From positions 64,001 through 128,000 of IMG/VR virus record IMGVR_UViG_3300041964_000083: a stretch of 64,000 nucleotides of DNA. One strand, 5' to 3'. Position 1 is the first letter of the stretch; each line of letters starts with the position of its first letter. The notes beneath the pieces are model-generated. The model ran no database searches and was not told where the DNA came from. It saw only the letters and a program-made list of their open reading frames with translations. Origin of the DNA: a virus. Positions 14,191-55,806 of the stretch are shown piece after piece. The translations under genes and the position numbers were made by a program.

Positions 14191-14195
14191 ATATT

Positions 14196-17037: not shown

Positions 17038-17051
17038 GAGCGCGATCATAC

Positions 17052-17988: not shown

Positions 17989-18004
17989 CAACTAATAGTT
18001 GTCA
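17986..18004. repeat. 19-bp palindrome copy 1 (TGACAACTAATAGTTGTCA)
   Basis: Overlaps TGA stop of 17725..17988; followed by terminator. Confidence 0.9.
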
Positions 18005-18007
18005 TTT

Positions 18008-18044
18008 CAACACCGCGTCATGTACTGATGCGGTGTTGTTTTTT
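18008..18044 (+). terminator. Rho-independent terminator
   Basis: CAACACCGCGTCA-tgtac-TGATGCGGTGTTG + T-run. Confidence 0.8.
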
Positions 18045-18084
18045 CGTATCAGGGTAGAATTGACATGAGAACTAGCGATCGCGT

Positions 18085-22756: not shown

Positions 22757-22897
22757 TGTACTAACAGTCTCTAATTTGTATTGTTTTCTTGTTCAGTATA
22801 CAATATTTACAGAAAATTAAAAGCGATCGCGTTTCTCGACTGGACATCTGGAATTACGCGATCGCCTTACCCCACACACATGAAGGGCTAACAGCAT

Positions 22898-26625: not shown

Positions 26626-27015
26626 TCAATTTTTGAACCCGTACACGTAATATTCGTAACCGTTAGATAAGTTGCATCCACCCATAACGCAAATAAGTTT
26701 CAACTTGGGGTTATCAAAATACGCTCTCAAAAACGCTTCTGCGTATCGGGCTGTTCTTGGTGATGCGCCTGAATCCTTTGCTTTCTCGCTTGCCGCTTCT
26801 GCTTTCGTCCTATCCCATTGCCAGATGCGATCGCTATACTCCCATGTCAAACCATCTTCTTGATGACCATAAATAACTTGAGGCTTTTTCCAGATTTTTT
26901 GCTGATAACTTGGGTACTGAAGGCGTTGATCTGGGTCTAATGTTGGAATAATTGCTGGTAGCTGATATTCTTTGGCAATGCCATGCGCCATTTCAAACCA
27001 TTCTTCGTCCATCAT
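26626..27015 (-). CDS. Hypothetical phage protein
   Basis: 129-aa ORF. Confidence 0.6.
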   Translation of the reverse strand: MMDEEWFEMAHGIAKEYQLPAIIPTLDPDQRLQYPSYQQKIWKKPQVIYGHQEDGLTWEYSDRIWQWDRTKAEAASEKAKDSGASPRTARYAEAFLRAYFDNPKLKLICVMGGCNLSNGYEYYVYGFKN

Positions 27016-27084
27016 CGCTTTATCCTTGCAATTTGTTGAGTAGACGCAAGTCCTAATAATGTACGGTGCGATCGCGTCTCCCCT

Positions 27085-28242
27085 TTAGTCTCTAATCTGT
27101 ACGGGCATATCAGGTAAGTCATCTTCAACTCACCTAGGGGTACGAGTATGACCGGAGTATCAGCGGTATTAATCAACATCTGAATCTCTGTAGTCGCAAG
27201 CGTCTTTAAGCCATCAATTAAGTATTTAACATTGAAGGCTATAAGTAAGTCATCACCTGATACCTGAATAGGCATTGACTCTTGTCCACTACCAACATCT
27301 TGAGCATCAACCGATAAAGTAAGCTGCTGGTTAATGCTGTCAATGCTGAACTTAACCGTATTGTTTTTCTGGTCAGCTAGTACGCCGATGCGCTCCACTG
27401 CACCAAGTAACTGCCGTCGATCAATTGTGACTTGCCGCTGGAACTGAACTGGAATCAACTGCCGATAGGCTGGGTATGTTCCTTCTAGTGTGCGACTCGT
27501 TAAGCGCTGCTCTCCCTCCTGAAAGACAAGCTGACCTTGCTCAAAATGAAGCATAACCGTATCTACTGGTTGCTTGGTGGCAATCATCCGTTCAAGCTCT
27601 TTTAGCGCTCTAGTGGGCACGGTGACTTGAAATGGCTCAACACTTTCTTGATTGTCTTCGCTCTGATTTTTTGTTTCTACAACGGCAAGGCGATGCCCAT
27701 CTGTGGCAGCAAACTCTAAGCCATCTTGCTGAACAGTTAAGTGAACACCAGTTAGTACCTGTTTGGTTTCATCGGGACTAGTGGCAAACAGCGTGCTACC
27801 CAACCCTTGCTTTAGCGCTTCAACGGGGTAGGCTAATTGCCGTCTCTGATTGCACCTGTGGAAGTGCTGGGAATTCATCAGCACTCATCCCGCGCATTTG
27901 ATAGCGCCCAGATGCTGAAGTTAGCGTGACGATATGGCTACCTTCAGCATCGCCTTCTCCTGATTTCTCAGATAACGTGATTTCCCCTTCAGATAGACGA
28001 GAAACAATATCACTAAGTAGTTTTGCCGGAATGGTTAGTTTTCCGCTCGTTTCTACCGTAGCGGCAAAACTGGTCTGAATGCCAAGACTCAGATCAAATG
28101 CGGTAAGCGTCACCTTCTGTGCTTCGGCATCAGCCACGAGCAGCACATTACCCAATATTGGGTGGGTAGGACGAGAGGGAACCGCTCGACTTACTAGAGA
28201 GAGGTTTGTGTTGAGTTCGCTTTGGATGCAGGTTAGTTTCAT
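27085..28242 (-). pseudogene. dnaN: DNA polymerase III beta clamp, cyanobacterial type, with two frameshifts
   Basis: MKLTCIQSELNTNLSLVSRAVPSRPTHPIL...FAATDGHRL...; extra base in G-run 27825-27828; missing base near 27108 (alternative frame gives expected end MPVQIRD*). Confidence 0.9.
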
Positions 28243-29620: not shown

Positions 29621-29752
29621 TTCTTTAATTCGGTCTATGGGTTATACTATATACCATAAACCAATAATTGCAAAGCAAAAGCGATCGCGCACCTCGGACT
29701 GGAAATCTGGTTACGCGATCGCCTAGCACTACCCAACTACTTAGGAGCACCA

Positions 29753-30657
29753 ATGGAAATCATACGTCGCGTTGACAACAACGTCGAGTTTTACACAGTA
29801 ACTGCTACCGGAAAATCTGGAATGAGTCAAAGTGGTTTATCAATTCTTTCTGGAGTTACCCGCCAAGCTATTATCAAAATCGAAAAGACCCTTGTAACCG
29901 AAGCACCATCTAAAACGCTGGAAAGGTTTGTGGGTAAGGATTTTACCCTTGTAACCGAAAATGCAATGATTGATGGTAAACCAACCGGAAACCTCAATGT
30001 TTACGCTTCGCCGTTTTGCGGAGCAGTGATTCGTCACTATGCATACAAAGGTAACGATACGGCACAATATAGCCTTGAACAGTTCTCTGATATGGGGATA
30101 GAGAAGTGGATTCAAGAGATTACTGGATGGACTAAACCCAATCAACCGTCTCAAGCATCAATGGTTGGGTACTGGGCAGAGCGGCAGCGGCTATTCATCC
30201 AGAAGACTACAATCCCTAGTGGGTGGTTCTGTGTCTTTGAGGAATTGGCTAAGTTGATGTGGCAGCTTGAGAACTTGGGTATGTTATCCCCGACTACAGT
30301 CCAGTAACCAACAAACGGATTATGCCCGATATATCGATTGGTAAAATATTCTGCAAATATATGCGGAAGAATGGCTACGCTGTTGACTCTACTGTTCGCA
30401 GCTACCCGCATTATTATCCCGGATGGGCGTTACCCGTAAACGCTAACATTTACCCCAATGCTTGGTTAGAAGTGTTTCGAGCTTGGTTTGATGAGCAGTG
30501 GAAGCCGCAACGGTTGGTTAAGTATTTAGGAAAGCGCGACCCCGATAGTATGCCTTCAATCTGCAAATTGTTAGGTTTACCTGAAGCGCCAGTGCAACTT
30601 GAACTACTTACTGTTAAAAATGGCGAGATTCTAGTACTCAAAGATTGCAACAGCTAA
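29753..30657 (+). pseudogene. BstA-like protein (KilA-N-like N-domain + BstA-like C-domain), one frameshift
   Basis: GMSQSGLSILSGV...FCGAVIRHYAY...GIEKWIQEITGW then IPSGWFCVFEE / MPDISIG...YPNAWLEVFRAWF; one G missing at 30277-30279 relative to paralogue at 22898. Confidence 0.7.
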
Positions 30658-31709: not shown

Positions 31710-32498
31710 TTAGATTTGGTGTGATCGCGTATCAATCCACTCCGGCGACACATCCGCAGATTCCTCAGTATCTAAGCAAACTCCGCCAAAGATGTTGTAG
31801 GAAATACCATTTTCCCAGTACACAGCAACGTGTTTGGGGTCTACTTCTGGTTTGCCAACGCTGTCAGTCTTGCGACGGAATCGGGTTACCCCTTCAAAAA
31901 CAGCGTTGAAGAGCAGCCGGACGATCGCGCCTCTATGTTTAGGTAAATCGTGCAAATCACTATGCCAGCGCCAGCAGAAGAACTCTTCTAAGCTTTCGTA
32001 GAGTATCAGTGCCTTTACCATATCGAAGTTTTCAATGTCGGGTGCTGTGCCGCGCTTTTTCTCACCAGGGTTGAAACTCTGCTTTTGGTAGCGGAAAATC
32101 CCAAACACATCAGCAAGCATATCCCGCATTTTCCACATAGTTGTTCGTCCAGAGGCAGCACCCGTCCAATGCTCTTTGAGGTAAGTGCAGATGGCTTGCT
32201 GTGTGATGTTGAAGCACTCAACGCCTTGTCGTGCGATCGCAGTGAGTCTATTGGTTACGTGGTGGCGTGTACCTTTCTTCTTCAGGCTTAGGGTATCCAT
32301 TGCGGCACGGTATAGGTAAGCGTTGAGTACGCCCATTGCCGTTAGCACCTGCTTCTTAGTCCAGTTGGCGACGATACCGAAGATGTCTTGTCGAATGCTA
32401 TGGAGTTGCGATCGCGTCGGTAAGGTTAAGCCAAACCCTGTGCGAACACTTGTACTCTGTTGATTTGCGGGAAATTGCATTATACTTTCCATATTCAC
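31710..32498 (-). CDS. Winged-helix, Rep-initiator-like protein, paralogue A
   Basis: Shares WxKxxxLTxMGxLN..YRAA, YLKxxWxGAxxGRTTxWK, KALxLYExLE, LPxHxGAI..FxGVxRxRRK with 39810..40745. Confidence 0.5.
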   Translation of the reverse strand: MNMESIMQFPANQQSTSVRTGFGLTLPTRSQLHSIRQDIFGIVANWTKKQVLTAMGVLNAYLYRAAMDTLSLKKKGTRHHVTNRLTAIARQGVECFNITQQAICTYLKEHWTGAASGRTTMWKMRDMLADVFGIFRYQKQSFNPGEKKRGTAPDIENFDMVKALILYESLEEFFCWRWHSDLHDLPKHRGAIVRLLFNAVFEGVTRFRRKTDSVGKPEVDPKHVAVYWENGISYNIFGGVCLDTEESADVSPEWIDTRSHQI

Positions 32499-32604
32499 GG
32501 ATGGGAAACCGAGAATTTATTGAAAGCCGTCGAGGGGTAAGAATGCTCGGCGGCTTTCGCTATTGGTTGAAATTATCGCACAAAACTCCGTCGAAAACCA
32601 AAGA

Positions 32605-32740
32605 TGAACGCTTAAGCCTCTTTATTAATTTTGAGTGAAGATTTTCTTCTTTCCAACGAAGTTTTGTCTTTCTAGCAGGGTTTGTCTTGTTAAAAAAAAT
32701 CAATTCAGACAAACTCCTCATCCCAAAGCTTAAGCGTTCA
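32605..32740. repeat. 13-bp perfect inverted repeat (TGAACGCTTAAGC) around 110-bp AT-rich spacer
   Basis: 32605-32617 and 32728-32740. Confidence 0.85.
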
Positions 32741-32771
32741 CACCTTGTTAAAATAAGCTTTCTGCAAAATT

Positions 32772-32790
32772 TGACATCGTTTCGTTGTCA
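32772..32790. repeat. 19-bp palindrome copy 6 (TGACATCGTTTCGTTGTCA)
   Basis: Sequence match; end of recombinase operon. Confidence 0.85.
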
Positions 32791-33296
32791 GCATTAATTT
32801 TAATCGTCTGCCATCTCATATCCTTTCAAGCTTCTAACAATGCGATAAATAACCCCACAATTTTCGTATTCAACATACTTGTTAGATAAGTTTTCAAGTA
32901 TTGCCCACCCTAATCGCTCTGTTCCCATAGTCCAATTAGGATTACTGACAACCGTCCACTGACTTTTATCAACCTGCCGACAAATTAAATATTGAATCGG
33001 TTTTTTCATATTTCGTCAAACTAAATCAGAAGCGATCGCGTCTAATCGTCTCTCAAATTTCCATTCTCTAGGGCACGCTCAACAAGTAAGTCGGCTGCCT
33101 CTAAAATACTTGTACCAGTTGCCCAGCAGGGGTTGGCATTCAAAGAGCACCAGTCGGTTAAAGCTATTGCTAGAGCTTCTTCTAGTTCACCGCTTCGTTC
33201 TAACTCTCCCTCAAATTGCACTGGGGTACTAACACAAGTACAAATTAACTCAACACCCATATCTTTTAGTGTTATCAGCAATTCATCAGTGTCCAT

Positions 33297-34262
33297 CTAA
33301 ATTAATCCTGAAACAATTTCCGACATCTCTCCCTGAGCATTCTTCCGATTGTCATCATAGATCAGTAAGGTGTCAGACTTACTATGGCGAGAGAGCTTCT
33401 GCACCCGCCTCACGTCTCCATTCGTCGCATCCAGTGCCGCTGTTAAGGTCGAGTGCCGGATGCGGTGAGGTGAGAATATCTTTTTAATACCAGCTTGAGT
33501 CGCAATTTCTCGAACAATCCGATACACACCATCACCCGTGAGAGGATGCCCGTAGTGGGCATTATTGAGTGCGATAAATAACGGGTCGCCTTCCTCCACC
33601 TCGCCTCGGCAATCCAACCATTCCTGAATTGCCACTACGGTTGTAGGTGGCAATTCAACCCGCTCCACCTGAGTCCCCCGACCTTTTCCTAAAATACTGA
33701 GCGTTCGTTTTCTCGCATCAAAATCCCCAACCTTTACCAGCGCCTCACTGCGCCGCAGAGCATTGGACCAGAATAATCGAAGCAGTGCATAATCTCGCTT
33801 CCCTTTCAACGTTGCGCGATCGCACACTTCAAGCATCGCCTTAAATTCATCAACGCTCACCCCAGAGGTATCCCGATACGTCCGGCATCGTTCACCCTTA
33901 ATTTCCTCAAGGGTAAATTTACATTTATCAAGTTTACGTGCATAAGCCGTCAACGACTTAATCGCTGCTAGCCGTCGATTAACCGTCGCCTCTTTCAACC
34001 CCTGCGCCAACAACTGAGCTTTATACTTCAGCACCACCTTAATCGCATCTGCCCGCGCCAACCCCAAAAACTGTCCAACAGCTTCTGGGGTTGGTTTGGT
34101 TTTAGTCAAGAACTCGAAGAAGTACCCCAAGTCTTTCTCATATGCACGACGGGTGTTACGCGATCGCTTATCAGCCAGCAAGTCACGAATTAAGTCATCA
34201 TCTTCAATGTGTTCAGCAAGCCAAGATGGTTGCTGAGTTGCGAGGTTACTCACGCTCAACAC
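33297..34262 (-). CDS. Tyrosine recombinase/integrase (XerC-like, plasmid resolvase type)
   Basis: RDYALLRL...LRRSE, GKG, PHRIRHS, SRHSK..TLLIY catalytic residues; SAM-like N-domain TRRAY..TVNRRLAAIKS. Confidence 0.92.
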   Translation of the reverse strand: MLSVSNLATQQPSWLAEHIEDDDLIRDLLADKRSRNTRRAYEKDLGYFFEFLTKTKPTPEAVGQFLGLARADAIKVVLKYKAQLLAQGLKEATVNRRLAAIKSLTAYARKLDKCKFTLEEIKGERCRTYRDTSGVSVDEFKAMLEVCDRATLKGKRDYALLRLFWSNALRRSEALVKVGDFDARKRTLSILGKGRGTQVERVELPPTTVVAIQEWLDCRGEVEEGDPLFIALNNAHYGHPLTGDGVYRIVREIATQAGIKKIFSPHRIRHSTLTAALDATNGDVRRVQKLSRHSKSDTLLIYDDNRKNAQGEMSEIVSGLI

Positions 34263-34638
34263 CTGGTGTCAATGAGTATGAGTATTGTTCACTTGATAAT
34301 GGTTCTGGATCTAGATAGATTTCAACACTATCTTTATCCATATCCTCTCCTAGTGTTAATGCCCAATCATTACCCAACGCGGCTACTTCAACGTTAATCC
34401 GCAATACATTAAATTCAGAAAAATAAGAAAGTAACCCTTTGTAAATCTTTGAACTACCATCGCGCCATGTTCGCTTCATGAGAATGGGTGTGTTAGCAGG
34501 GAGCGATCGCGCTTCGATAAAACTAAGCGATTGTTGAGTTATGCGGTTACTCAGCAATACATCGCTGTCAAGGGTATGTATAGTACACACACCCTTTTCA
34601 TCATGAATTAGCGATTCAAGCTGTTCTTGGGGCTGCAT
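34246..34638 (-). CDS. Hypothetical protein
   Basis: ORF upstream of recombinase. Confidence 0.5.
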   Translation of the reverse strand: MQPQEQLESLIHDEKGVCTIHTLDSDVLLSNRITQQSLSFIEARSLPANTPILMKRTWRDGSSKIYKGLLSYFSEFNVLRINVEVAALGNDWALTLGEDMDKDSVEIYLDPEPLSSEQYSYSLTPGVERE

Positions 34639-34755
34639 AAGAGCTTTTAGGCTATATAAATATCTGACTAGTATACCCTCAACTCATGATAATGAGCGTT
34701 TACAAGAGTTAGGTAGGGTTGGGTAGAATTTAAGAGTAGCGTTACGCGATCGCAC

Positions 34756-35668
34756 ATGAGCAAATGGTGGCTATTATCAGACGAAGACTTTTGCAGCATT
34801 GCAAAGAATCTTACCCAAGCAATTGAAGAATGCTGCGATGCCGATAAGAAAAGGTTGCTAGAAGATACGCGGCATACATTGGAAACGGGACTGCACGTTA
34901 CGGATGCCGTGCCGAGTGACTTCAAGAACAAAGAGCATCGATCAGCACCAGAGTACCCACCAGCAACACCAAAGCACCTTCGCACAAACAGTCGTGAATT
35001 ATGAGTAATCTACAGCAGTATTTTGAAGAACTCCTTTCATCATTGTTGACTCAAGAAGCCCATTTTCACAAACGCTTTGCCAATCCAAAAGCAACTGATA
35101 TCCTCAACAGCAAATATACACTAGCAAGATTTTGTACCTACCTCAGAAACTTGCAAGAATTAGAACCAGCGCAAGCCGCAAAATCACTCGTTGATAAAAT
35201 AAATTGTTCCCCTCAGTACTGGTATACAAGAGAGCAAGATGGTGCATTATTGCGGAAGGTTGAAACGCTTGAACCAATGATAGCTTGTGCAATGAGAGAC
35301 GCGATCACGCAAGTTGATTGGGTAGAGTTGTGGAACTCGCTACAACCACACATTGAACCATTTCTGATTAGGTATGAGTATGAAGGATTAGTAATTAGCA
35401 AAATACAAAATAATCGCACATGACCTTATCAACAAGCTGCCCTCGCTGCTATGGAGAGTCAACGCTATTTCACAAAAGCCAGTACAAGGGCGACATCTTC
35501 AAGTGCAAATCTTGTTTGATTCCTCATCCAACAAAAGAGGAAAAGATACCGCTGTTGTGGTTTTGGGAGAGCGATCGCTTATGGGAAGGATTAGATCAAC
35601 CGGAAGGTGAAAATAAGCCGGAACTTGTCAAGGTAATCTTAGGAACCGAGCCAGAGAAAATTGTTTGA
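34756..35668 (+). CDS. Three small hypothetical genes (34756-35004, 35001-35423, 35420-35668); last has CxxC zinc ribbon
   Basis: ATGA-coupled ORFs. Confidence 0.6.
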
Positions 35669-35684
35669 CATCTAATCGTTGTCA
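35666..35684. repeat. 19-bp palindrome copy 7 (TGACATCTAATCGTTGTCA)
   Basis: Overlaps TGA stop at a convergent junction. Confidence 0.85.
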
Positions 35685-35693
35685 GTTAAAAAT

Positions 35694-36056
35694 TTAGATT
35701 GCGATCGCGTATCCTTGTTCAGCTTGTGCAGCAAGTTCTTTGAGGCGTTCCCAGCAATAAGGGTCACGATTTATTGGTTTAATTTCAAATTTGGGAAATA
35801 GCTGATTAATCTGGTTCTCAGTTATGGATTCAGGTAACGCCATAAGAATTCGGGTAACTGTTGCCAAGAGAATAAGTGCAAATTCTCTATCCGCACCTGC
35901 ACAATAATCAAGCGTCACCCAATCTCTACCAACTAATCCTACCCTAACTCGAACTCCATACATAACTGGAAGAAAACCAATTTCCCAAATCTGGTTTTCA
36001 GACACCCAACGACCTGCGGGGAAGTTTTGGTTTGATTCTACTTTGGTGAAGTTCAT
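35694..36056 (-). CDS. Hypothetical protein
   Basis: 120-aa ORF. Confidence 0.55.
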   Translation of the reverse strand: MNFTKVESNQNFPAGRWVSENQIWEIGFLPVMYGVRVRVGLVGRDWVTLDYCAGADREFALILLATVTRILMALPESITENQINQLFPKFEIKPINRDPYCWERLKELAAQAEQGYAIAI

Positions 36057-36061
36057 TTTGC

Positions 36062-36544
36062 TTATGCAACCTCATCATCCAACACCCAATACTTAAAGGT
36101 TACACCCAATGCTGGTGTAGGCTTTACCGCAATACCAACAGCTAGCAAACTCGCTACACAAATTGCCAGTGTAGGTGTATCAGCCGTAGCATCACAAAAC
36201 CCCATGTGACAGTGCCAAGCACGGATAGGGTGTTTAAGCCATCCTTTTTCAAGCGTAAATTCATGATTTGGGTACATCTTTTCTGCTACAGCCCAAGCCA
36301 AAGCCATAGAGCGACTTGGATTCCAAGATGTACCACGCAATCCAATACTATCTACTTGATAGAGCGCCCAACCATTACATTCTTTTGGCTCGAATATCTC
36401 GTAGATTAGGATTTCCCCTTCTTCGGGAACGGTTTCATCCCAATCGATTACTCGCCAACCCATCACCTTCTCGGCAACTAATCGATCTAAAGCGTTGTAA
36501 GAGTCAACTGACAACGTTTCGATGTCATTACGGTTTCTTCTCAT
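36062..36544 (-). CDS. Phage ABA-sandwich / NinX-like protein
   Basis: LDRLVAEKVMGW...WNPSRSMALAWAVAEKM...TPTLAICVASL. Confidence 0.7.
   Translation of the reverse strand: MRRNRNDIETLSVDSYNALDRLVAEKVMGWRVIDWDETVPEEGEILIYEIFEPKECNGWALYQVDSIGLRGTSWNPSRSMALAWAVAEKMYPNHEFTLEKGWLKHPIRAWHCHMGFCDATADTPTLAICVASLLAVGIAVKPTPALGVTFKYWVLDDEVA
36509..36527. repeat. 19-bp palindrome copy 8 (TGACAACGTTTCGATGTCA), inside the 5' end of an ORF
   Basis: Sequence match. Confidence 0.8.
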
Positions 36545-38740
36545 GATTTGCCTTCAATGCGTCGTTGTTCTTGCTCTATCATGCTTAGAAATTTCTCTCG
36601 AACTTCCCATGCTCGCTGGAGTTTCGGAACATCAGCTGAATTTGCTTCTTTAGCTTGGGATAGTGCGATCGCGTATGCATGACGTTCTAGATAAATCTGG
36701 TGCAGCGATATCTCCGTAGAGATGATCGCAATTGGTAACTTTTTCAGGTCACTTGTCATGTACACAAATGGCTGACCCTTCACCTCGACATAACAATCAC
36801 CCAATGGGTTAACCAGCATAACGATGCCGCGCTCTCCGGTTGGTAACTCCGCGCAGCTACCTTGACTGATTTTTTGTTCTTTCTCAACTTTGACCAGCTT
36901 TTCGAGTTTTACGGGTTCGATGCGGTTTTCTACTTCGGTGTTGGGAACCAAATCCGGAAATAGAGATGGTTGGATTGGTTGGTTGTTCATACGCGATCGC
37001 CTCCTCTACGAGTTTCCCTTAACTGCTGAAACTCTTCAATTGTCGATTCAACATCAAACAGACTATCAGCAGGTTTGCCACTTGACTCTTTAACCTTCTC
37101 AAAAAAGTCTTTTAGAAATTCATCGCTTTCCATTGTTTCTGCCGCCCTTAAGATATCTAGCGCCTGCCCTCGCCATGCCGTAAAACGACTAGGATTCTCC
37201 TCCCTAAACTTCCTAAATTCTAAGAGTAGCGCACCAGCAATTTCCAGCTCCACGCCTATAACACGAGTCATCCATTCAATAAGTAGGCTATCAGTTTCAG
37301 CTGCAATCGCGCACTGCATTATCCCTAGGGCAAACTCGAAAGCTTCGGTGGGTGTGAATTCTGTCCTGTTTTTGTCCCAAGCCACATCAACCATTGGCTT
37401 TTTGTCGCGACTATTTACCCGTGAGTGAACATAAATTTCACCAGCACTGTATTCAGTCAATACCCCAATTTTCTTTTTCTCAGATGGAGGTAAGCGCTTG
37501 AGTTCCGCAAACGTTGTTTTCCTGGCGGTTTTACCAAATCCTTTCATCAGTTATCTATAATCTCCAATCCTGTCTCTCTTGCAACTTGCTGGGTAAATGA
37601 TTCCCAGTTCTCACCGCCATACTTTAAACGGGTGCGTTGAACGCTACTGATAGCATTATCAATCGCTTCAACGACTAAATCATCCCAAGGCGTATCGAGG
37701 TTCGTTGTAGATGCGCCCGTACCAAATAGCGCATCGTCACCGCAGTCATAAGAATTCTCGCCCTTTCCTGGCATGGGAATCCCACCCACAATTTCAAGCC
37801 CAACATCTTTTCGGGTTCGCTTGAGGAAAGGGAAACGCGATCGCGTCCATGTTCTGATTTCTAGCTTGGCATTGGCTTTGTAGATTCGGTTATCGAAATG
37901 AATATCAACAGGTCGTTCGCCCTCAACTTGTGTAGTGCAACGCTCCCGTCCAAGTAGTAAATCGGTTGGATGAATAACGATTCGTCGCCAATCATTATTC
38001 CTCCAGCAGTCAACTTCCGCAAATAGATAAATCCAAATAATGCCGTGATGAATTCTAAAGCTGAGTTCTCGTTCGTCTTCAGATAACCAGCTTACCCAAT
38101 GGTGAGGCAGTTTTTCAATGGATAGAAAAACACTAAATAGAAGTAACCCAACATGGAAAGTTACTACATTCTCAATCCCGCCCACATTAATACTGAGAGC
38201 TAAACTATCCCATTGTGGAATAGTCCAGCTGCCATGCAATGCCCACACATCTTGCGCAGGTTCATTTTTGGAATTGAGTTTCCAATAAGTGAGGGTTCGA
38301 CTTCCTGCAATCCATGCTCTACCTCTATCATCTCGATTATTGTCTACAGACCAGAAAGTGTAATGTAGCTTCCATTTGAGAAACAAATGCCAATTAATTC
38401 GCGCTAAACCGTTAACTAACCCGATGATGGGGTTATCTAATAGTCGATAAAATTCATCCGCGCAAGGCTCAATTAGCGTCAACATATCCATGTAGTTGTC
38501 AGCTAGCCAGTTTCTTTCAGTGTCACTAGCAGCACGCCTAAACAACGTTGATATGTATTCACCCAACTTAGCTAAATTAAAATCTGGGAAACTTAGTATT
38601 TCCTGAACAAATACGCGATCGCACCCGTTCTCTACCATGTAAGCCTCTATCCATTTGAGTTCGCGCCACTCGTCTCCATGCACGTTAGCAATTAGTTCCC
38701 AGTCCCGCATTAGCATAAGTGCCACTCTTCCTGATAACAA
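36541..38740 (-). CDS. Three hypothetical genes (36541-36990, 36987-37547, 37547-38740)
   Basis: Coupled minus-strand ORFs; no recognisable family. Confidence 0.6.
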
Positions 38741-38947
38741 TAGTGATAGAACCTTTAGGTAAGCCTCACACTAAATCTACCTCAATATGCCTTGGTTTGT
38801 TATTGTTCAGTCTGCTACAGAAAAACCAGACCATCTGACTGTTTGGACTCGATTTCCCGTAGGAACAGAACGATACGCTTATGTGGGTAGCGTATCTCAC
38901 GAAGATTTTGCAGAATTAAAGGAACAACACCGAGTAGTTGTCGCAAA

Positions 38948-39220
38948 GTGGCTAAAAAAGTACGTACTGCAACCAAAACAGTAAAAGTGAAGGTAAAGCG
39001 TAAACCAATTCCTCCGGGTATTCGTTATGACGCACTCTCTAAAGCTAATTTTCGCTGCCAGTCTTGCGGTGTGCTATCTCGAAATGCACGGCTGGAAATC
39101 GATCACAAAATACCCGTGGCGAAAGGTGGGACTAATGCGATCGCGAACCTACAAGTTTTATGCGTTGCCTGTAATCGCGGGAAAGGTGCAAAGCTCAAGC
39201 GCAAGAGAAAACAGATATGA
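38948..39220 (+). CDS. HNH endonuclease
   Basis: CQSCG...LEIDHKIPVAKGGTNAIANLQVLCVACNRGK. Confidence 0.92.
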   Translation: MAKKVRTATKTVKVKVKRKPIPPGIRYDALSKANFRCQSCGVLSRNARLEIDHKIPVAKGGTNAIANLQVLCVACNRGKGAKLKRKRKQI

Positions 39221-39549
39221 AAAAGAATAAGGGTTTTGGTACTCCACAGGAGAAATGTCAACCTTTGCTACTTTTGGTAGGTGATGGCGTTTCACCAGAT
39301 GTTTTGGCAAAAGATCCAAACATTCAAAAAACTTACCCTGGTATCACCGCAAAGGAATTCATATGGATAAAAGCAACCAGAATGGAAGAGTTTGGGTCTT
39401 TTCCTAAAACAATAGAATTACAAACTGACGACGGAAAGATTCAACGTATTTACAAAATACCAAAAGACACAGCAACGCAACTCAAGAAAACAAGACGAGT
39501 TTATATCGAATCTGACATAAACTGGAGTAAGTTTGACGGCTTATCCTAG
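39217..39549 (+). CDS. Hypothetical protein with N-terminal KGFG motif
   Basis: MKKNKGFG. Confidence 0.55.
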   Translation: MKKNKGFGTPQEKCQPLLLLVGDGVSPDVLAKDPNIQKTYPGITAKEFIWIKATRMEEFGSFPKTIELQTDDGKIQRIYKIPKDTATQLKKTRRVYIESDINWSKFDGLS

Positions 39550-39809
39550 AGCTACATTTGAATGTGCGATTATTCTTGCGATCGCGTGTTAACCACAGCG
39601 GCTTGACCCCTCTCCCCTATCTGCAAACCAAGTCGAGAGAGATAGTTATCGCCATAATCAACTCTCCATGCGTCCGATGGTGAAGTGGCTTCTACTTTGA
39701 CAACTACTCCGGTATCCCCGTCTGGGTGTCTAATCGTGTCGCCTTCATGGATTGGTTTTTCTGCGAAGTCACTCCACGGTGCTTTTTCAGGTTGTTTAGT
39801 CATGCGTTT

Positions 39810-40745
39810 TTAATATGGAAGTTCGTTCTCAGGGAACGGTGTGTCAACTTGAAGACTGGGTTCAGCTTCGTGTCGAGTGAATCGTTGTCGCCACAATTCA
39901 TGAGCTTTCTTTGCGCTCATGACACACCCATCTTCACAAACAATTAAAACAGCTAATGGTAATCCTCCATCTTTTAAAATGTACTCGCAATCATGCTCAA
40001 AGGTAAAGTTACGGGGTTTTACGTACTGGTTAGACTCAACCTGTGATGCTCTATCTAGTACTTCTTCGCGAGGGTCGGGCAGAGCAAGTTCTTTGCGACG
40101 GTAGCGAACAACGCCCGCAAAGAACTTGTTAAATACAAGAGAGATAATCGCACCCTTATGCTCTGGTAATCCATCAAACCCATCCTTCTCTTCGCCGTAA
40201 TGCTGACGCAGCAGATTCTCTAGGTGTTCGTAGAGCAGAAGTGCTTTGGCAAAATTAAAGTTTTGAATAACTGTTGCTTGCCCCCATTGACCCGCTTTGA
40301 ACTTACGCTCTTCACAGGTGAATAAGTTAAAGGTATCCGAAAGCATTTTCTTGGTTTTCCAAAGCGTCGTGCGTCCGGTGTTGGCTCCTTTCCAATAAGT
40401 TTTGAGGTATAGTGCAACCGTTTGCATCCCACACCGGAACTTTCTAACACCACGGGATAGAGCTTGTCCAATATTCTCGACAACTCGGTGGAAGCCTGAT
40501 TGTTTATAGGTTTTGGTTCTAAATGCTTTCTTGACTTGCACCAACACCTTCATCTCTCTTGCAGCGCGATAGATGAGGATGTTGAGAAGTCCCATCGTGG
40601 TTAAAATCTTTTCTTTACTCCATACCCTCGTGGCTGTGGCGATGTTGCCAGAGGTAATGGCAGTAAATTCAGTGACGCAATCGGTTATCTGCTGGGCAGT
40701 TAGGGGTTTTGGAGCGAAGCCTTTGGGAAATGTAGGGATAACCAT
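39810..40745 (-). CDS. Winged-helix, Rep-initiator-like protein, paralogue B
   Basis: Clear paralogy to 31710..32498; HTH-like GRTTLWK helix followed by wing. Confidence 0.5.
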   Translation of the reverse strand: MVIPTFPKGFAPKPLTAQQITDCVTEFTAITSGNIATATRVWSKEKILTTMGLLNILIYRAAREMKVLVQVKKAFRTKTYKQSGFHRVVENIGQALSRGVRKFRCGMQTVALYLKTYWKGANTGRTTLWKTKKMLSDTFNLFTCEERKFKAGQWGQATVIQNFNFAKALLLYEHLENLLRQHYGEEKDGFDGLPEHKGAIISLVFNKFFAGVVRYRRKELALPDPREEVLDRASQVESNQYVKPRNFTFEHDCEYILKDGGLPLAVLIVCEDGCVMSAKKAHELWRQRFTRHEAEPSLQVDTPFPENELPY

Positions 40746-40841
40746 GTTACGATGGGGATGCTTTTTTGATAAATTGGTAAGCCGCTCGTTGTTGAAGCAA
40801 CTGGCGGCTATTTTTTTGTATTATGCCACGGAAAGCTAGTT

Positions 40842-41000
40842 AAACGCACCGTGAACGTATAAGCATTTTTGTTAATCTTGTAAGTCTATTTGTTAACCCA
40901 AAGTGGTAGGAAGGGATCAATGGACTAGAGCGAACAAGCAAAAGTGAAAAATAAAACTCTTTAACTTTAAGACTGATGCTTATACGTTCACGGTGCGTTT
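40842..41000. repeat. 25-bp perfect inverted repeat (AAACGCACCGTGAACGTATAAGCAT) around 109-bp AT-rich spacer
   Basis: 40842-40866 and 40976-41000. Confidence 0.92.
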
Positions 41001-41022
41001 TGTGTAAAGATATGTAACAAGC

Positions 41023-41041
41023 TGACAACGAATCGTTGTCA
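41023..41041. repeat. 19-bp palindrome copy 9 (consensus; extended AAGC...GCTT)
   Basis: AAGC-TGACAACGAATCGTTGTCA-GCTT. Confidence 0.92.
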
Positions 41042-41113
41042 GCTTGGGGCGTGGTTGTAGCTTAAAATGAATAGTGAGATCGCACTATTCGAGTTAAAGC
41101 AAATAGCCCAACT

Positions 41114-41898: not shown

Positions 41899-42621
41899 TC
41901 ACCATCCCTCCGGTAACTCCACACCGATCGCGCACAAACTTCTGGTAATCCTTTCCTTATTCTCCTCGAACAGTGGGTGGTCGGGTACATCGCCACCAAT
42001 AGAGGCTAGCGGGATACTGAGGGTTTCTTTGTTCTCGTCTTCCTTATCGGGTGGCGTAAGGCGATGATTAGCTTGGACGAGCATCTTGGCTAGGTCTTGA
42101 GTACCGAACTGCTGAAATAGGTCTTTGGCACGAAGCTTGAATATCAGGAGAGTGTCTACCCAAATATCAAGCTCACTATCCCCCGTGGTGTGTTTGGGTG
42201 GAGTGTCGTCCCCTGTTGAGTAGGTGTACCCCATAAGTTGGGATAGCTTTGATAAGCCCACAACGAGTTCGTTTGTGACGGGGTGAGTAACGGGGTCGGT
42301 GCAGATGAAGAATTTGTGGCGGCAAAGGGAGGTGATGCGATCGCAGTTCACTACCCACCCACTACTTACTTGCTTTAAATTCTCGCTCAATTCTTGTACC
42401 CCTGCAAGGGGGAGTTGATTGGCAATCTTCTGGTAGTAGCGCTTAAGAGTTTCGTAGATTTGGTACTCGACTACTTCGTTGTAGGGATAGATTTCATAGC
42501 CCTCAAGCTGGGTGAGGAGCGCTAGATGATATTGGCGGATGAGGGAAGAGTGCGCGATCGCAGGCGTCTTGATAAACGCAAAATCACCGTCGATAAAATC
42601 AATCTGCTCCCAGTTCGGCAT
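41899..42621 (-). CDS. Hypothetical tail-region protein
   Basis: Last gene of minus-strand structural operon. Confidence 0.5.
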   Translation of the reverse strand: MPNWEQIDFIDGDFAFIKTPAIAHSSLIRQYHLALLTQLEGYEIYPYNEVVEYQIYETLKRYYQKIANQLPLAGVQELSENLKQVSSGWVVNCDRITSLCRHKFFICTDPVTHPVTNELVVGLSKLSQLMGYTYSTGDDTPPKHTTGDSELDIWVDTLLIFKLRAKDLFQQFGTQDLAKMLVQANHRLTPPDKEDENKETLSIPLASIGGDVPDHPLFEENKERITRSLCAIGVELPEGW

Positions 42622-44096
42622 CAGGCGTAATAACTCGCAGCGATAACCACAGCCCCTATTGATAACGGATAAAATTTATTTACTTTAATATCTTCTTCTA
42701 CTTCAATCGTATTGTTTATGAGATTGATAACTGCTTTCCATACAGGAATATCTTTTAATTCCGCGTTTGGTGTTTTATAAATGTTTGAACTATTTTGATA
42801 AAGAGCTAATGTTTTGGTCTGCCATAACCCCTGCTGAAATTGTCCAGAATTAGCTGGGGGAAGAACTAGATAATAATTGTTATCAATTAAACTTGCACCA
42901 CGCTGCGAATTTAATGATTGAAATTTATCAATGTTATAAGGAATATCAATTTTATCTTTGTTATTAGGTTTTTCATTAACAAAAACCAAGTTATTTTCTT
43001 GAGTTTCAGTTCGATCTCCATTAACCGTATTAGAAACATTCTCCTCTTGTTGGTAAATGTAAGCATTTTTCCCTGATATCTGTGGTGTAACGGTTAAAGA
43101 TCGTGTTCCTGATATAACAGGTCCTGTAACACCTGTATCTGTTTGTACCGTATCCTCATTTAAACTATATTGATATTCGGTGTTGATAATTTTTTTTGAT
43201 AAACTCTTTGAATATAAAACATAAGTTGGTGTGATAGACGATTGATTTCTAATGTCTTTAATTTTAGTTATAAAACTAGAAGAAACATTAGAAATTTGCA
43301 CAGAAATTATTTCGTGAGTACGATTCATCTCATAAGATAATGCGCCTATCGTTACGTCTACCGTTTTATTAAACGCAAAACCAATATTCCCAACAGAATA
43401 AATATTATTTGTTTGTTGAAAATTATCACTTTGAGTGTAGTTAAAACTTCCTGATCCAAAAACCAAAGGACTTGTGCTTTCGTAGCTCCAGGAAGATGAG
43501 GTATCTGTGTATGTTTGCCCAATAGCTCTAACGCTCCCTTGAAATGTCCCTACCCAATTTCCAAATCCGATCCAATTCAACAAGTATGTCCACGGCTCGG
43601 TACAGGTGTAAATTTTGTTGTTATAAACATTAACAACGCGATCACTAAACTTAAACCCAGCGACCCAATCATTCTTCCCTCGTCCCGTATTTGAAAACTG
43701 GACTACAGGAAGTGTAGTTGTAGTGTAAATTTGAACAGGTTTTTTGCGATCACCGCCAACATACCAATCGTATCCTTGAGCGGTTCTGATATAGAAAAGA
43801 ACTTTGATGGGTCCTGTGTCCACCTGAATATTGTTAGGACGCGATCGCCTAGAGATTAACGTGTTGTCAGATATAGTTTGGTTAGGAGACTGGAAGGCAT
43901 ACCAGGTACCATTAGCGCGTTGCAGCAAGGTAGGTTGAGTTGTACAGGGGGTAGCTGCGATCGCGTTAACACTACCATTTTCGCCCTGCACATTTACCGT
44001 ACCATCAGCATTCATCCCCGTCGCTAACCCAATCGCTTCGTCTGGGTCATTGGTAAGAAAGTCGTGAAGCTCTTTGGAGGTGTCTTGGTCGCTCAA
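42621..44096 (-). CDS. Putative tail fibre / receptor-binding protein
   Basis: Beta-rich Asn/Thr/Ser C-terminal part encoded by AT-rich DNA; tail operon context. Confidence 0.55.
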   Translation of the reverse strand: MSDQDTSKELHDFLTNDPDEAIGLATGMNADGTVNVQGENGSVNAIAATPCTTQPTLLQRANGTWYAFQSPNQTISDNTLISRRSRPNNIQVDTGPIKVLFYIRTAQGYDWYVGGDRKKPVQIYTTTTLPVVQFSNTGRGKNDWVAGFKFSDRVVNVYNNKIYTCTEPWTYLLNWIGFGNWVGTFQGSVRAIGQTYTDTSSSWSYESTSPLVFGSGSFNYTQSDNFQQTNNIYSVGNIGFAFNKTVDVTIGALSYEMNRTHEIISVQISNVSSSFITKIKDIRNQSSITPTYVLYSKSLSKKIINTEYQYSLNEDTVQTDTGVTGPVISGTRSLTVTPQISGKNAYIYQQEENVSNTVNGDRTETQENNLVFVNEKPNNKDKIDIPYNIDKFQSLNSQRGASLIDNNYYLVLPPANSGQFQQGLWQTKTLALYQNSSNIYKTPNAELKDIPVWKAVINLINNTIEVEEDIKVNKFYPLSIGAVVIAASYYA

Positions 44097-45413
44097 AGTA
44101 AATGAAATGTTGTGCGATCGTGTAAATAAACTAACTCAATTCTACGACGTTCCTGCTCGATGTGCTGAGAGCTACGGATAAGGTCTACAAAGCTTGAAGC
44201 TAAATAGAATTCGTTGTTGTCAGCAAAAACTATCTTTGCTTCGAGGTGTTTAAATTGTTCTTGGGAGATGGATACAGCAGGCGGTTGAATAACGGGAAAT
44301 TTGGCAAACTTGATGTGCTTGCCAGCGAGATCAGGGGATACTTCGATAATGCCGCCCTCGGCAATTGTAAGTTGTCCAGTTCCCGTGATTTGGGAGACTA
44401 TACTCACACCCTGAGCTTCGCCTTTGGCTGGGAGATACGCGATCGCAGGTGTAGTTTCATCCTGAGCCATAATTCGCCCGGTTTTACCCAGTAGATGTAA
44501 TTGCCCTTTTGTCCCATGTAGGTAGGTTTCAGCTTCAGCGTACATGGCTGGTGTTTCATCAACCTTGTACTTGCTGCCAATACTAATTGCATACAATTCA
44601 GCTCCCCCACCTAAAAAGGAGAGGGAGATGCGATCCGATGTAATCGTAATGTCGGGAGGTTTGGCGATCGCGGGTACTACTGCACCATCAGCAACAAGCC
44701 AAGCGCGAAGCGGTGTAGTATCTTCAAGCGGGGCGGGGAATACCATTGTCTATCTGAATGGTGTCTAGGGAACGCGGACCTTTAGCGGCATACTTCACCG
44801 GCGCTTGAAATTCAACGCTAGTTGCAGCACCCGTAAACCACTGTACCGTGATATCACATAGCGGTAGACCGGTGGGGTCAACTGAGTAAATAAGGTTAGC
44901 CTCCATGATTTTCACATGGCGCACACTACCAGATGCTGGGGTTGTCGTCGCGATCGTCACGTTTCCAACAGCGGTACTACCCGCGTTGTCGAGCGTGAAA
45001 GCCAAGCCCGCTACAGCACCGGTTATCGTGATTGTGCCGTTACTGGCTTTGGCGTTTACCCTAGGGTCTTCGTTGAGCTGTTTAGCGAGGTTTTGGGCAA
45101 TGATTGTCACCGTGTCAGCATTCTTTTGGCGATAGAGTGCTGTTCCTGGTGCTAGCGTCACGTTGGACGTACCACTGGTTGGTGGGGCATCACCTGCGAT
45201 CGCAAGAGAATAAACGTCACCCGTTGCACCGGCTGTAATAGTAACGGTAGATGTTTGGATTGCCGCTGCGGGGTCGAGGGAGATGTATTGCTCGACTTTG
45301 ACTTGATTTTCGTTTGGCGTAGCTACCCGGCACTCTGAAACAACAGACGCTGGTGCAGTTTGAGATAGTTTTGGTCGATTAAAAGTAAGTGTTCCAGTAG
45401 CTTGATCTGGCAT
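44093..45413 (-). CDS. Two putative virion structural proteins (44093-44746, 44724-45413)
   Basis: Thr/Ala/Gly-rich beta proteins (TVTITAGATGDVYSLAI...ASNGTITITG). Confidence 0.55.
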
Positions 45414-55673: not shown

Positions 55674-55806
55674 TGCTCATTTCCTTTTGTAGGTTAGTGG
55701 GCAGCAGCCACCCTGCGTGTGTTCAATTCGACAGGGTGGCTGCGTTTACTTGCTAAGTGAATTCAGTACATCTATAATTATGGATGTACATAACATAATA
55801 AGTCAA

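Follow-up and report, generated by a model that had tools for sequence, protein, structure and literature searches.

Paralogous genes behind private split inverted repeats in a cyanophage: a candidate family of autoregulated winged-helix DNA-binding proteins

Regulators that bridge separated DNA sites by looping are exemplified by AraC (O2-I1) and GalR (OE-OI), which join distant half-sites or operators, while the controller (C) proteins of restriction-modification systems are encoded by autoregulated genes at the head of operons. In archaea, the cdc6 gene lies downstream of an unwinding element flanked by the inverted ORB elements of the Orc1/Cdc6 system, and in phage lambda the winged-helix protein gpNu1 binds, beside its own gene, the R elements repeated in cosB, between which IHF bends the DNA. 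TrfA is a winged-helix initiator of the iteron type that recruits the beta clamp through the short motif QLSLF (PMC8034659), and the C-terminal DDDIPF of bacterial SSB is a motif that serves as a hub for primase and further replication proteins (PMC5872125).

The loci compared here with these systems lie in a 154-kb cyanophage record (IMGVR_UViG_3300041964_000083; 43% GC), within a stretch of 64,000 nucleotides (positions 64,001 to 128,000 of the record), hereafter the window. Two minus-strand open reading frames at 31710..32498 (P0001, 262 amino acids) and 39810..40745 (P0002, 311 amino acids, ending in ...ENELPY) are clear paralogues, as the original prediction had it, with 72 of 186 residues identical in a protein comparison (39%, E 1e-40). 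P0001 matches PHROG 34986 (E 4e-15) and returned no match in a Pfam search. Both proteins belong to an uncharacterised family of virus proteins comprising about 112 clusters, for which no match was found in Pfam or NCBIfam. P0002 is followed by a 77-aa gene and has an HNH gene close by, as has the related locus L016. A minus-strand tyrosine recombinase/integrase gene (33297..34262; Pfam Phage_integrase 9.6e-18, Phage_int_SAM_1 4.8e-10) lies 560 bp from the elements upstream of P0001 and is a neighbour with no evident link to the repeats described below. The record encodes DnaB, DnaE and a DnaN-like gene, those for DnaB and DnaE at a distance of 80-90 kb from the paralogues; neither a recognised replication initiator nor ParB was found in it.

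All the elements predicted upstream of the two genes were recomputed from the sequence and found at their predicted positions. In module 1, upstream of P0001, a minus-strand leader hairpin with 13-nt arms (AGCCGCCGAG...CTCGACGGCT; 32522..32558; RNA fold -17.4 kcal/mol, z -4.4) is followed by an extended -10-like element, TGcGATAAT (32572..32580, minus strand), read from the sequence as the inferred promoter, and by a perfect 13-bp inverted repeat whose promoter-proximal arm (TGAACGCTTAAGC, 32605..32617) and distal arm (GCTTAAGCGTTCA, 32728..32740) enclose a 110-bp spacer of 32% GC (32618..32727). Module 2, upstream of P0002, consists of a minus-strand hairpin (AGCCGC...GCGGCT; 40780..40809; -15.3 kcal/mol, z -5.0), the equivalent element TGgCATAAT (40820..40828, minus strand) and a perfect inverted repeat with 25 of 25 bases complementary, its proximal arm (core GTGAACGTATAAGCAT) at 40842..40866 and its distal arm at 40976..41000, around a 109-bp spacer of 33% GC (40867..40975). 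An equivalent TGnxATAAT is also present at the related loci L003 and L012. The inferred promoters of modules 1 and 2 were not called by a consensus promoter scan, in module 1 because a -35 element is lacking. The two spacers fall in the lowest 2-4% of the 110-bp windows of the record by GC content; they are not conserved in sequence, do not resemble other spacers in the forward or the inverted orientation, and contain neither a conserved small open reading frame nor an Rfam family.

The repeats exceed chance controls: no spaced inverted repeat in the other 15 intergenic regions of at least 200 bp has more than 10 matched bases, 1 of 153 control windows of 400 bp exceeds 12 matched bases, and 3 of 200 shuffles reach 12. 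Each arm motif is unique in the 154-kb record, and no iterons or tandem repeats were found. Two further elements had been assigned to the modules. A 19-bp palindrome is present past the distal arm both in module 1 (32772..32790, one mismatch, 31 bp from the arm and 10 bp after the stop codon of an upstream 69-aa open reading frame) and in module 2 (41023..41041, perfect, 22 bp from the arm, extending to 41018-41046 as 14+1+14); however, TGACAWCG-N3-CGWTGTCA occurs in 28 copies in the record against about one expected and is therefore no private part of either module. The GC hairpin is a real feature of both and is found at the equivalent position in relatives, but hairpins of its type also precede unrelated genes.

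The order arm, spacer, arm, sigma-70-type promoter, leader hairpin and start codon was observed at 11 of the 13 family loci with enough upstream sequence, among them both copies in phage vB_AphaS-CL131. The identical build proposed for the two modules holds for the order of the parts; the 110/109-bp spacing is not kept, the unconserved spacers of relatives ranging from 53 to 173 nt without helical phasing of the arms, and the -10 element likewise lies anywhere from 16 to 56 nt from the proximal arm. The AT-richness of the spacer, evident here, does not extend to every relative: GC content is 49% at L015 and 39-40%, equal to the surroundings, at L004 and L007. The family gene comes after a non-coding region of 300-480 bp and heads a run of co-directional genes, as at L015 and at P0002 with the 77-aa gene after it, and at half of the loci the upstream gene is divergent. 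The genomes are those of 40-150-kb phages, the contigs are phage-sized, and a PLSDB search gave no match.

The arms differ between lineages, match within each locus and are unique in the genome. The predicted recognition helix tracks the arm, RTTLWKTKK occurring with GTGAACGTATAAGCAT, RTTMWKMRD with TGAACGCTTAAGC, and unrelated arms being found where the helices are distant; the orthologous locus L003 keeps a 16-bp core of the module 2 arm, and one near relative has had gene and repeat swapped jointly as a cassette. The cognate pairing of gene and repeat in the original prediction is borne out by these observations, and the repeats are probably the docking sites of the proteins encoded beside them.

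The same layout is found at both family genes of the cultured, virulent phage CL131, from which an integrase is absent and in which no initiator or primase is identified (PMC6293099). Clear promoters, TTGACA-17-TAGAAT and TTGCTA-17-TAGAAT, lie downstream of its arms, and the family genes head the runs gp018 to gp013, which includes the IHF/HU-like gp015, and gp052 to the terminase genes gp058/059, gp058 being a separately annotated small terminase. A search of CL131 for more copies of the arms gave none beyond a chance-level match in a tandem repeat.

The structure model of P0002 (mean pLDDT 78.6) resembles the winged helices of PadR, CRP and the Cdc6 winged-helix domain with modest scores (Z up to 7.1), in agreement with the predicted uncharacterised winged-helix family, and both paralogues are assigned to this fold class. 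The scores are too low to tell true kinship from a merely similar arrangement. The top matches, the CRP/FNR DNA-binding domain and PadR (Z 6.2-7.1) together with Anabaena Pex (Foldseek probability 0.96), cover the helix 44-64, the helix-turn-helix 107-137, the wing and the long helix that follows. What sets the family apart from these proteins is an insertion of 40 residues, an additional helix at the N-terminus, a segment with conserved LPxHxG, a variable C-terminal domain whose tip is conserved, and the absence of a Pfam match to PadR or CRP. Weak look-alikes include the Cdc6/ORC lid and winged-helix domain (Z about 6, TM 0.3-0.56, low), RepA_N, P1 RepL, IncFII RepA and HTH_36, while no match to Rep, AAA+ or HUH families was obtained and no terminase small-subunit family or structure is present among the sequence and structure matches. 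The tip, acidic-[LIV]-P-[FY]-COOH (for example ...CDDADIPF), is present in 31 of 115 representatives if defined strictly and in about half if defined more loosely, is kept across distant members and follows a low-confidence, probably disordered tail; it is absent from P0001 and its near relatives.

The explanation that we favour, though tentatively and at less than an even chance, is that each paralogue is a sequence-specific winged-helix DNA-binding protein acting as an autoregulated operon-head regulator, with a private site in two parts that co-evolves with it upstream. Each inverted arm, with its conserved core of about 13-16 bp, would be occupied by one subunit or domain set, and a protein bridging both arms would loop out the freely evolving, usually AT-rich spacer just upstream of the sigma-70-type promoter, with feedback on how the protein's own gene and those following it are transcribed. 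Sites upstream of the protein's own transcription unit, two separated sites near a promoter and a gene at the operon head are shared with AraC, GalR and the C proteins, from which the family differs in having no sequence or fold-family relation to them, no recognisable effector domain, unconserved spacing and phasing, and sites that together make up a single split inverted repeat, not a pair of complete palindromes. The regulator-like top structural matches, the order of parts ahead of the gene, its place at the start of a gene run, the co-variation of arm and recognition helix, the absence of conserved content from the spacers and the location of the genes away from replication genes are consistent with this explanation, as is the presence of two paralogues with distinct arms in each of two unrelated phages, which is ordinary for regulators. 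Against it count the promoters missed by the consensus scan, arm and -10 distances that are less strict than in classical operators, arm lengths of up to 25 perfect bp, beyond the need of a single winged helix, an SSB-like tip that is no known feature of transcription factors, and the uniqueness of the arms in the record, which would restrict each regulon to its own transcription unit.

The origin role in the original prediction, of two initiator/origin pairs, is a credible alternative and only somewhat less probable. The winged-helix protein on its inverted arms would open or wrap an AT-rich spacer as Orc1/Cdc6 does on ORB elements, the SSB-like tip may recruit host or phage replisome parts, and the protein may, like plasmid Rep proteins, repress the promoter of its gene. 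Inverted non-palindromic sites around an AT-rich spacer of about 100 bp, immediately ahead of the gene that encodes the binding protein, recall Orc1/Cdc6, as does the weak structural likeness, but the family has no AAA+ ATPase domain and belongs to phages of a bacterial host. With the iteron-type initiators RepA, RepE, pi and TrfA the family shares a winged-helix protein encoded beside a private DNA site, inverted copies of that site close to the promoter of the gene, as known from Rep autoregulation, and an AT-rich stretch alongside; unlike them, it has no direct-repeat iterons, Rep sequence match or demonstrated tandem WH1-WH2 architecture, its arms are 53-173 bp apart rather than adjacent, and its genes reside on phage genomes, not plasmids. 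The tip, which resembles the SSB C-terminus and could serve as the motif of TrfA does, hints at a replication link in about half of the family, although it is borne by a predicted double-strand DNA-binding winged-helix protein instead of an OB-fold and is missing from one paralogue. The joint exchange of the gene and the private site beside it, the low GC of the present spacers, the weak look-alikes among Rep and Cdc6/ORC proteins, the absence of a recognised initiator from both this phage and CL131, and the cumulative GC skew of the window, with its minimum at 39.5-40.5 kb beside module 2 and positive values maintained over the minus-strand genes at 41.9-45.4 kb, add to the case; however, the skew does not change at module 1, the spacer is not AT-rich throughout the family, DnaB and DnaE are distant, the fold scores are low, and it would be unusual for each of two phages to have a pair of initiators with an origin apiece. 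The dual-replicon phage-plasmid proposed with this role is not supported, the record being a 154-kb phage that carries replisome genes of its own but no ParB, and the two-copy layout recurring in virulent, integrase-less CL131.

It is improbable that the proteins are recognition factors for another cis-acting process near packaging genes, in the manner of gpNu1. The private, single-copy site would suit this role, and the family gene is convergent with a Terminase_6C gene at L003, lies 3.5 kb from the large terminase in genome G001 and heads the CL131 run that ends in small and large terminase genes, with HNH genes near P0002 and at L016 and the IHF/HU-like gp015 in the other CL131 run; however, CL131 already has its small terminase, the family gene is never directly upstream of the large terminase at the loci examined, two copies occur per phage in two phages, and no small-subunit likeness emerged. 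Still less probable is a structured RNA or single-strand DNA element in which the arms form a long stem closing a large loop. Base pairing would explain arms wholly different between lineages yet complementary within a locus, and the L014 stem has two segments (17 + 16 bp), but the inferred promoter lies downstream of both arms, the divergent upstream gene at half of the loci means that no read-through transcript is expected, the spacers are unconserved without an Rfam match, the few arm mismatches would give G-U pairs on the sense strand at some loci but on the antisense strand at others, and the complementarity limited to the 16-bp core at L003, against 25 bp in module 2, fits concerted evolution of two binding sites. 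Least plausible are invertible switches, in which the tyrosine recombinase near module 1 would flip the spacer between perfect 13-25-bp inverted repeats just upstream of the gene, given that the conserved promoter elements are not within the segment between the repeats, neither a promoter nor any other sequence is conserved in the spacers, no recombinase is recorded near module 2, L003, L014, L015 or L016, CL131 has the modules without an integrase, the arms follow the winged-helix protein rather than the recombinase, and the spacer has kept one orientation at L004 and L007, the one pair of loci that are closely related.

Under the favoured explanation of autoregulated operon-head regulators, the central bases of the arms, CTT for one paralogue and TAT for the other, would be read differently by the two proteins, which are on that account proposed to form two separate control circuits within one phage.

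The genes P0001 (31710-32498, minus strand, 262 aa) and P0002 (39810-40745, minus strand, 311 aa) were confirmed to be paralogues, with 72 of 186 residues identical (E 1e-40), and each is preceded by a cis module (module 1 and module 2, respectively) comprising two inverted arms around a spacer, a predicted promoter and a leader hairpin. Module 1 carries a perfect 13-bp inverted repeat (32605-32617 and 32728-32740) with 110 bp between the arms and module 2 a perfect 25-bp inverted repeat (40842-40866 and 40976-41000) with 109 bp between them, the core common to both being TGAACG-NNN-AAGC, where NNN is CTT in module 1 and TAT in module 2. Spacer GC content is 32-33% in both modules, within the lowest 2-4% of the 110-bp windows in the record. 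GC-rich hairpins lie directly upstream of both start codons and fold far better than shuffled sequences (z -4.4 and -5.0), and a 19-bp palindrome is located beyond the distal arm, at 31 bp in module 1 and 22 bp in module 2. Spaced repeats of equal quality are present in none of the 15 other large intergenic regions and are nearly absent from control windows and shuffles. The arrangement described in the original prediction thereby stands as an observation. Direct-repeat families of more than two weak copies were found in neither of the two intergenic regions, Tandem Repeats Finder gave no report near the modules and Rfam gave no match over 31-42 kb. A promoter-like TTCCCA-17-TATAAT (32479-32507, minus strand) overlaps the annotated GTG start of P0001, the true start of which may be an in-frame ATG a few codons further downstream.

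The components of the modules differ in their specificity. The leader hairpin is present in both, but a promoter with a leader hairpin also precedes unrelated genes of the phage, such as those behind the hairpin stems at 22823-22865 and 29681-29722, which are based on the cyanobacterial HIP1 octamer (GCGATCGC, 247 copies in the record); specificity for the genes of this family therefore lies in the spaced repeat. The palindrome, which had been taken as a private part of the module, proved to be a genome-wide motif, TGACAWCG-N3-CGWTGTCA, with 28 copies in the 154-kb record where about one is expected. The copies are dispersed between 7 kb and 149.5 kb of the record; most of them sit at the ends of genes or between genes, and several overlap stop codons; those in the window are at 15817, 17986, 21170, 26469, 30673, 31273, 32772, 35666, 36509, 41023, 45501, 54879 and 57318. 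The cassette of gene and repeat begins beside one such copy. Dispersed palindromes of their own occupy the equivalent place in related loci from other contigs, namely AAAATCCAA-N6-TTGGATTTT (three copies in 12.9 kb) in L003, TGTAMACGATTCGTTTACA (two copies) in L012 and, on a stop codon in L016, the same TGACAWCG-N3-CGWTGTCA motif as in this record. Such palindromes may be bound by a global regulator or may act as junctions that facilitate the exchange of cassettes.

The record that carries the modules (153,952 bp, GC 43%, CheckV completeness 98%, the window being its bases 64001-128000) is a large cyanophage. It encodes a GpA-type large terminase (window 23622-25541, minus strand), a portal (window 57969-59315, minus strand) and, far from the modules, a bacterial-type replication set of ribonucleotide reductase, RNase HII, DnaB (record 13255-14637), DNA polymerase III alpha (record 15313-18756) and a DnaN-like gene. 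Searches of the record for ParB, PolA, Prim-Pol, SSB and HU/IHF found none of them. With phage structural and packaging genes present and ParB not found in the record, nothing points towards a plasmid, and the proposal of a phage-plasmid was not borne out. The DnaN-like protein (window 27012-27884, minus strand, 290 aa) matches the Pfam models of the central and C-terminal beta-clamp domains, with a weaker, overlapping match to the N-terminal model; the three-domain clamps of bacteria are longer, and this one could be a two-domain clamp or the product of a truncated gene. The portal and the large terminase are 34 kb apart, and the structural and packaging genes may be scattered or form two structural modules. 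A LAGLIDADG-domain protein (window 59749-61062, minus strand) adjoins the portal gene and an IS630-type DDE transposase is encoded at 48234-49337 (plus strand). The N- and C-terminal parts of the PHROG 6287 profile, a BstA-like abortive-infection protein, match the adjacent ORFs 29753-30307 and 30322-30657 (plus strand), so that the pair (29753-30657) looks like a gene broken by a frameshift or a stop; a promoter-like stretch and the HIP1-stem leader hairpin at 29681-29722 lie upstream of it. The cumulative GC skew of the window has its minimum at 39.5-40.5 kb, adjoining module 2; the skew is positive across the minus-strand genes at 41899-45413, contrary to its usual link with the direction of transcription, and the GC content falls to 34% at 42.5-43.5 kb.

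P0001 and P0002 belong to a protein family of which 112 members were recovered at E <= 0.001 by a profile search of 1.8 billion cluster representatives. Scans of the two proteins and 78 family members against Pfam revealed no credible domain, and NCBIfam gave no match for P0001 or P0002; both match PHROG 34986, a family of unknown function (E 4.3e-15 and 6.5e-08, respectively). The names of ten clusters that were looked up are 'hypothetical protein' or blank. Contigs carrying the family are 40-110 kb long and some were binned with Symploca genomes. TBLASTN with P0002 found no match in annotated plasmids or annotated phages, and that with the family member P0013 none in annotated phages; among the queries P0002, P0013 and P0015, only P0015 reached the cultured phage vB_AphaS-CL131 (MG209611.1; hereafter CL131).

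An AlphaFold model of P0002 built from 78 sequences (mean pLDDT 78.6, core >90) contains one clear winged helix at residues ~92-161, and the N-terminal helices and hairpin (17-88) could form a second. In the structure searches the matches were throughout winged-helix DNA-binding domains; their scores were modest. Those of the CRP/FNR and PadR types reached Z 6.2-7.1, the PadR-like structures 5zhc (Z 6.8), 1xma (Z 6.6) and 7wjp (Z 6.5) each spanning model residues 43-187, and Anabaena Pex had a Foldseek probability of 0.93-0.96 but an E-value of 0.2-0.3. The winged helices of Cdc6/ORC proteins (1fnn Z 6.2, 1w5s Z 6.0, human ORC subunits Z 6.0-6.2) and the Cdc6-type look-alikes in the structure atlas (TM 0.44-0.56 by the match) score too low to demonstrate kinship, and Rep structures do not appear among the matches listed by the structure searches. 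The one significant viral match (E 4e-11) is an unnamed BFVD model of 293 aa, the same length as the CL131 protein gp052. Look-alikes from the language-model and atlas searches, all below the reliable level (Rep-type language-model score 0.89), are a mixture of regulators (HTH_24, MarR, PadR) and initiators (Cdc6, RepA_N, P1 RepL, IncFII RepA, HTH_36). A homodimer prediction for P0002 residues 12-228 with a 78-row alignment, run without controls, scored 0.00 and counts neither for nor against a dimer. In the original prediction the two proteins were assigned to an uncharacterised winged-helix, Rep-like family; the modelled fold supports the winged-helix class, but kinship to any Rep family is unsupported.

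Many members end in an acidic-[LIV]-P-[FY]-COOH tip; a strict rule finds it in 31 of 115 members and a looser one in about half (e.g. ...CDDADIPF). Its variants among P0002 and P0003-P0107 include ELPY, DIPF, DLPY and EVPF and follow a tail of low model confidence; the tip of P0002 is encoded at window 39810-39830 (minus strand), and P0001 and its near relatives do not carry it.

Upstream DNA of the homologues was collected from Logan, ENA, NCBI, IMG/VR and JGI contigs and from phage CL131. The repeat is not peculiar to the window, a strong spaced inverted repeat being present in 11 of the 13 loci with enough upstream sequence, so that homologues do carry the module; L005 and L013 have no strong spaced repeat, that of L006 is degenerate and the upstream region of L008 is cut off. 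When viral, metagenome and genome contigs were scanned with a profile as guide, L004 and L012 were the only additions, and an exact inverted-repeat pattern scan of viral contigs yielded nothing. The order of the parts is constant, running from the distal arm through an unconserved spacer to the proximal arm, followed after 16-56 nt by a predicted -10 element (often TGnxATAAT), a stable hairpin and, 20-35 nt further, the start codon. The spacing of 110 and 109 bp is not shared across the family, in which the spacers measure 53-173 nt and the centre-to-centre distances show no helical phasing. Comparison of the spacers in both orientations detected no similarity except in the near-identical pair L004/L007, and small ORFs common to the spacers of different loci were not found.

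The arms fall into types that accompany the protein. Module 2 and L003 have the core GTGAACGTAYAAGCAT in common, module 1 and L012 the core TGAACGCTTAAGC, and L004 and L007 the core GTGAACGTAGAAG; the distant members L014, L015, L016 and CL131 have unrelated arms, yet arms that are complementary within each locus, and AAGCAT/ATGCTT at the inner arm ends is kept in many distant members. Arm type follows the predicted recognition helix. The complementary length is a 16-bp core in L003 as against 25 bp in module 2, which suggests that the extra length arises from concerted evolution of the two copies and not from a need for a long stem. Further copies of either arm motif do not rise above background in the 154-kb record. 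An apparent exchange can be seen in L016 (860-3373), which was compared with window 38787-41000: its HNH and 65-aa proteins are 99-100% identical to those of window 38787-39220, whereas its family gene is 28-31% identical to the window's, lies in the opposite orientation and has a different inverted repeat. Near-identity of the flank beside a divergent gene and repeat indicates that gene and repeat were exchanged together, in what looks like a recent swap of a gene plus its site.

CL131, a cultured virulent phage without an integrase (PMC6293099), likewise encodes two paralogues, which are separated by 40 kb and have different arm variants; the loci are MG209611.1 15103-16500 (gp018) and 55584-56878 (gp052), and the annotation calls both proteins hypothetical. 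The intergenic region of 410-480 bp in front of either gene holds a spaced inverted repeat, a hairpin and a near-consensus sigma-70 promoter, the predicted promoters being TTGACA-17-TAGAAT and TTGCTA-17-TAGAAT. The run of genes headed by gp052 ends with the two terminase genes, small and large, and the one headed by gp018 contains the IHF/HU-like gp015. G001, a 103-kb relative of 88% completeness, has one family copy. The CL131 arm motifs are confined to its two modules, except for a chance-level 11-mer in a 33-bp tandem repeat (MG209611.1 1-110 and 112640-112793; at least 7 copies, with no gene annotated there). This repeat, ACAAAATCATCCT every 33 bp at both record ends, was considered as an iteron array; its reverse strand, translated by eye, would give an acidic repeat of 11 residues (about DDFVVADDTEE), and the iteron reading was set aside because the 11-mer in common with the gp052 arm is expected by chance and the repeat reads as coding.

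Taken together, these comparisons establish that the winged-helix protein goes with a cognate inverted repeat, split in two and located immediately before the predicted promoter of its own gene. The protein would bind both arms and may bridge them across the spacer. Two outputs would fit such binding. In one, a tentative reading that is nonetheless a real contender, the protein is an autoregulated regulator at the head of an operon. Its fold class is that of transcription factors, the predicted promoter lies downstream of the arms, the family gene heads a co-directional run, two paralogues in a genome are ordinary for regulators and the replication genes are far from the family genes; the regulon would, however, be limited to the protein's own unit, the site geometry is loose and the C-terminal tip is left unexplained.

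The tip is accommodated more readily if protein and repeat form an initiator/origin pair, which we regard as possible though somewhat unlikely. The private site adjoins its own gene, the spacers are AT-rich in this phage, no other initiator is recognisable and there is a local GC-skew minimum at module 2. Against these stand the absence of iterons and of a Rep signature, spacers that are not AT-rich in L015 or L004/L007, the two copies per genome and the missing tip of P0001. The acidic-[LIV]-P-[FY]-COOH tip is similar to DDDIPF, the tip through which SSB docks primase and further proteins of replication (PMC5872125), and recruitment of the replisome through a short motif is known in winged-helix initiators, e.g. 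TrfA QLSLF (PMC8034659). In its fullest form, which appears unlikely, this origin reading would describe a new class of phage origin recognition, with a single-chain winged helix on two inverted sites around an unwinding spacer, an SSB-mimic tip recruiting the host primosome/replisome or the phage clamp, and two non-cross-reacting pairs in large cyanophages. In phage T4, late transcription is linked to the sliding clamp via a clamp-binding tail, and by analogy the family tip could also be such a tail; a DnaN-like protein is encoded by both this phage and CL131.

A packaging-type recognition factor is a minor rival, suggested by terminase and HNH genes near the family genes; it is weakened by the separate annotated small terminase (gp058) of CL131. 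In the loci examined the family genes are not immediately upstream of the large terminase (that of L003 is convergent with the terminase gene), and in the present record they are 6 and 14 kb from it. The invertible promoter switch that had been offered as the alternative is disfavoured: the stretch from the proximal arm to the gene, outside the flanked segment, holds the predicted and conserved -10 or -35/-10 elements, the spacers are unconserved and a promoter scanner finds no promoter in them, a recombinase is found beside module 1 only, with none near module 2 or among the called genes of L003 and L014-L016, CL131 has no integrase and L004/L007, the sole comparable close pair, have the same spacer orientation. 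The position of the predicted promoter, the presence of divergent genes upstream and the lack of spacer conservation likewise argue against a structured RNA. Two further candidates were rejected, namely a miniature transposon (no target-site duplication is seen at the 25-bp arms, the arms lie on the same side of the gene at a conserved position and their motifs are single-copy) and a rolling-circle origin at the hairpin (the loops have no common sequence, there is no HUH-type match and like leaders precede unrelated genes).

In layout the pair is closest to a Rep/origin-operator pair or an Orc1/ORB-DUE-ORB origin and in position to an autoregulated looping regulator, and it is a member of none of these, since its proteins match no Rep or PadR profile, it has neither iterons nor an AAA+ domain and the structural likeness is at the level of the fold class only. 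Unlike iteron-type Reps (Rep_3, RepA_N, IncFII_repA, TrfA), the family proteins match no Rep profile, and the modules have none of the direct-repeat iteron arrays of such origins. Orc1/Cdc6 is an AAA+ ATPase, whereas the family has no AAA match, is of 262-311 aa and has its winged helix in the middle; as an origin, the pair would have the site plan of the archaeal ORB-DUE-ORB but no ATPase. The PadR model PF03551 was matched neither by P0001 and P0002 nor by the 78 members. What emerges is an uncharacterised family restricted to cyanophages, for which the cognate cis element has been defined and in which an SSB-like tip is conserved.

Annotation is poor in the large cyanophages that infect bloom-forming and filamentous cyanobacteria, and for CL131 neither the initiator nor the regulatory scheme is known (PMC6293099). 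The present analysis defines a protein family of ~112 clusters without database annotation together with its accompanying cis element (11 of 13 loci), and gene and element behave as an exchangeable, specificity-matched cassette. As the layout occurs twice in the cultured phage CL131, binding specificity, promoter control and origin activity are directly testable. If the pairs do not cross-react, they would lend themselves to use in cyanobacterial genetic tools, whether as regulators or replicons, and if the SSB-like tip is functional, the family would represent an unusual case of a sequence-specific dsDNA-binding protein with a hub motif of the replication machinery.
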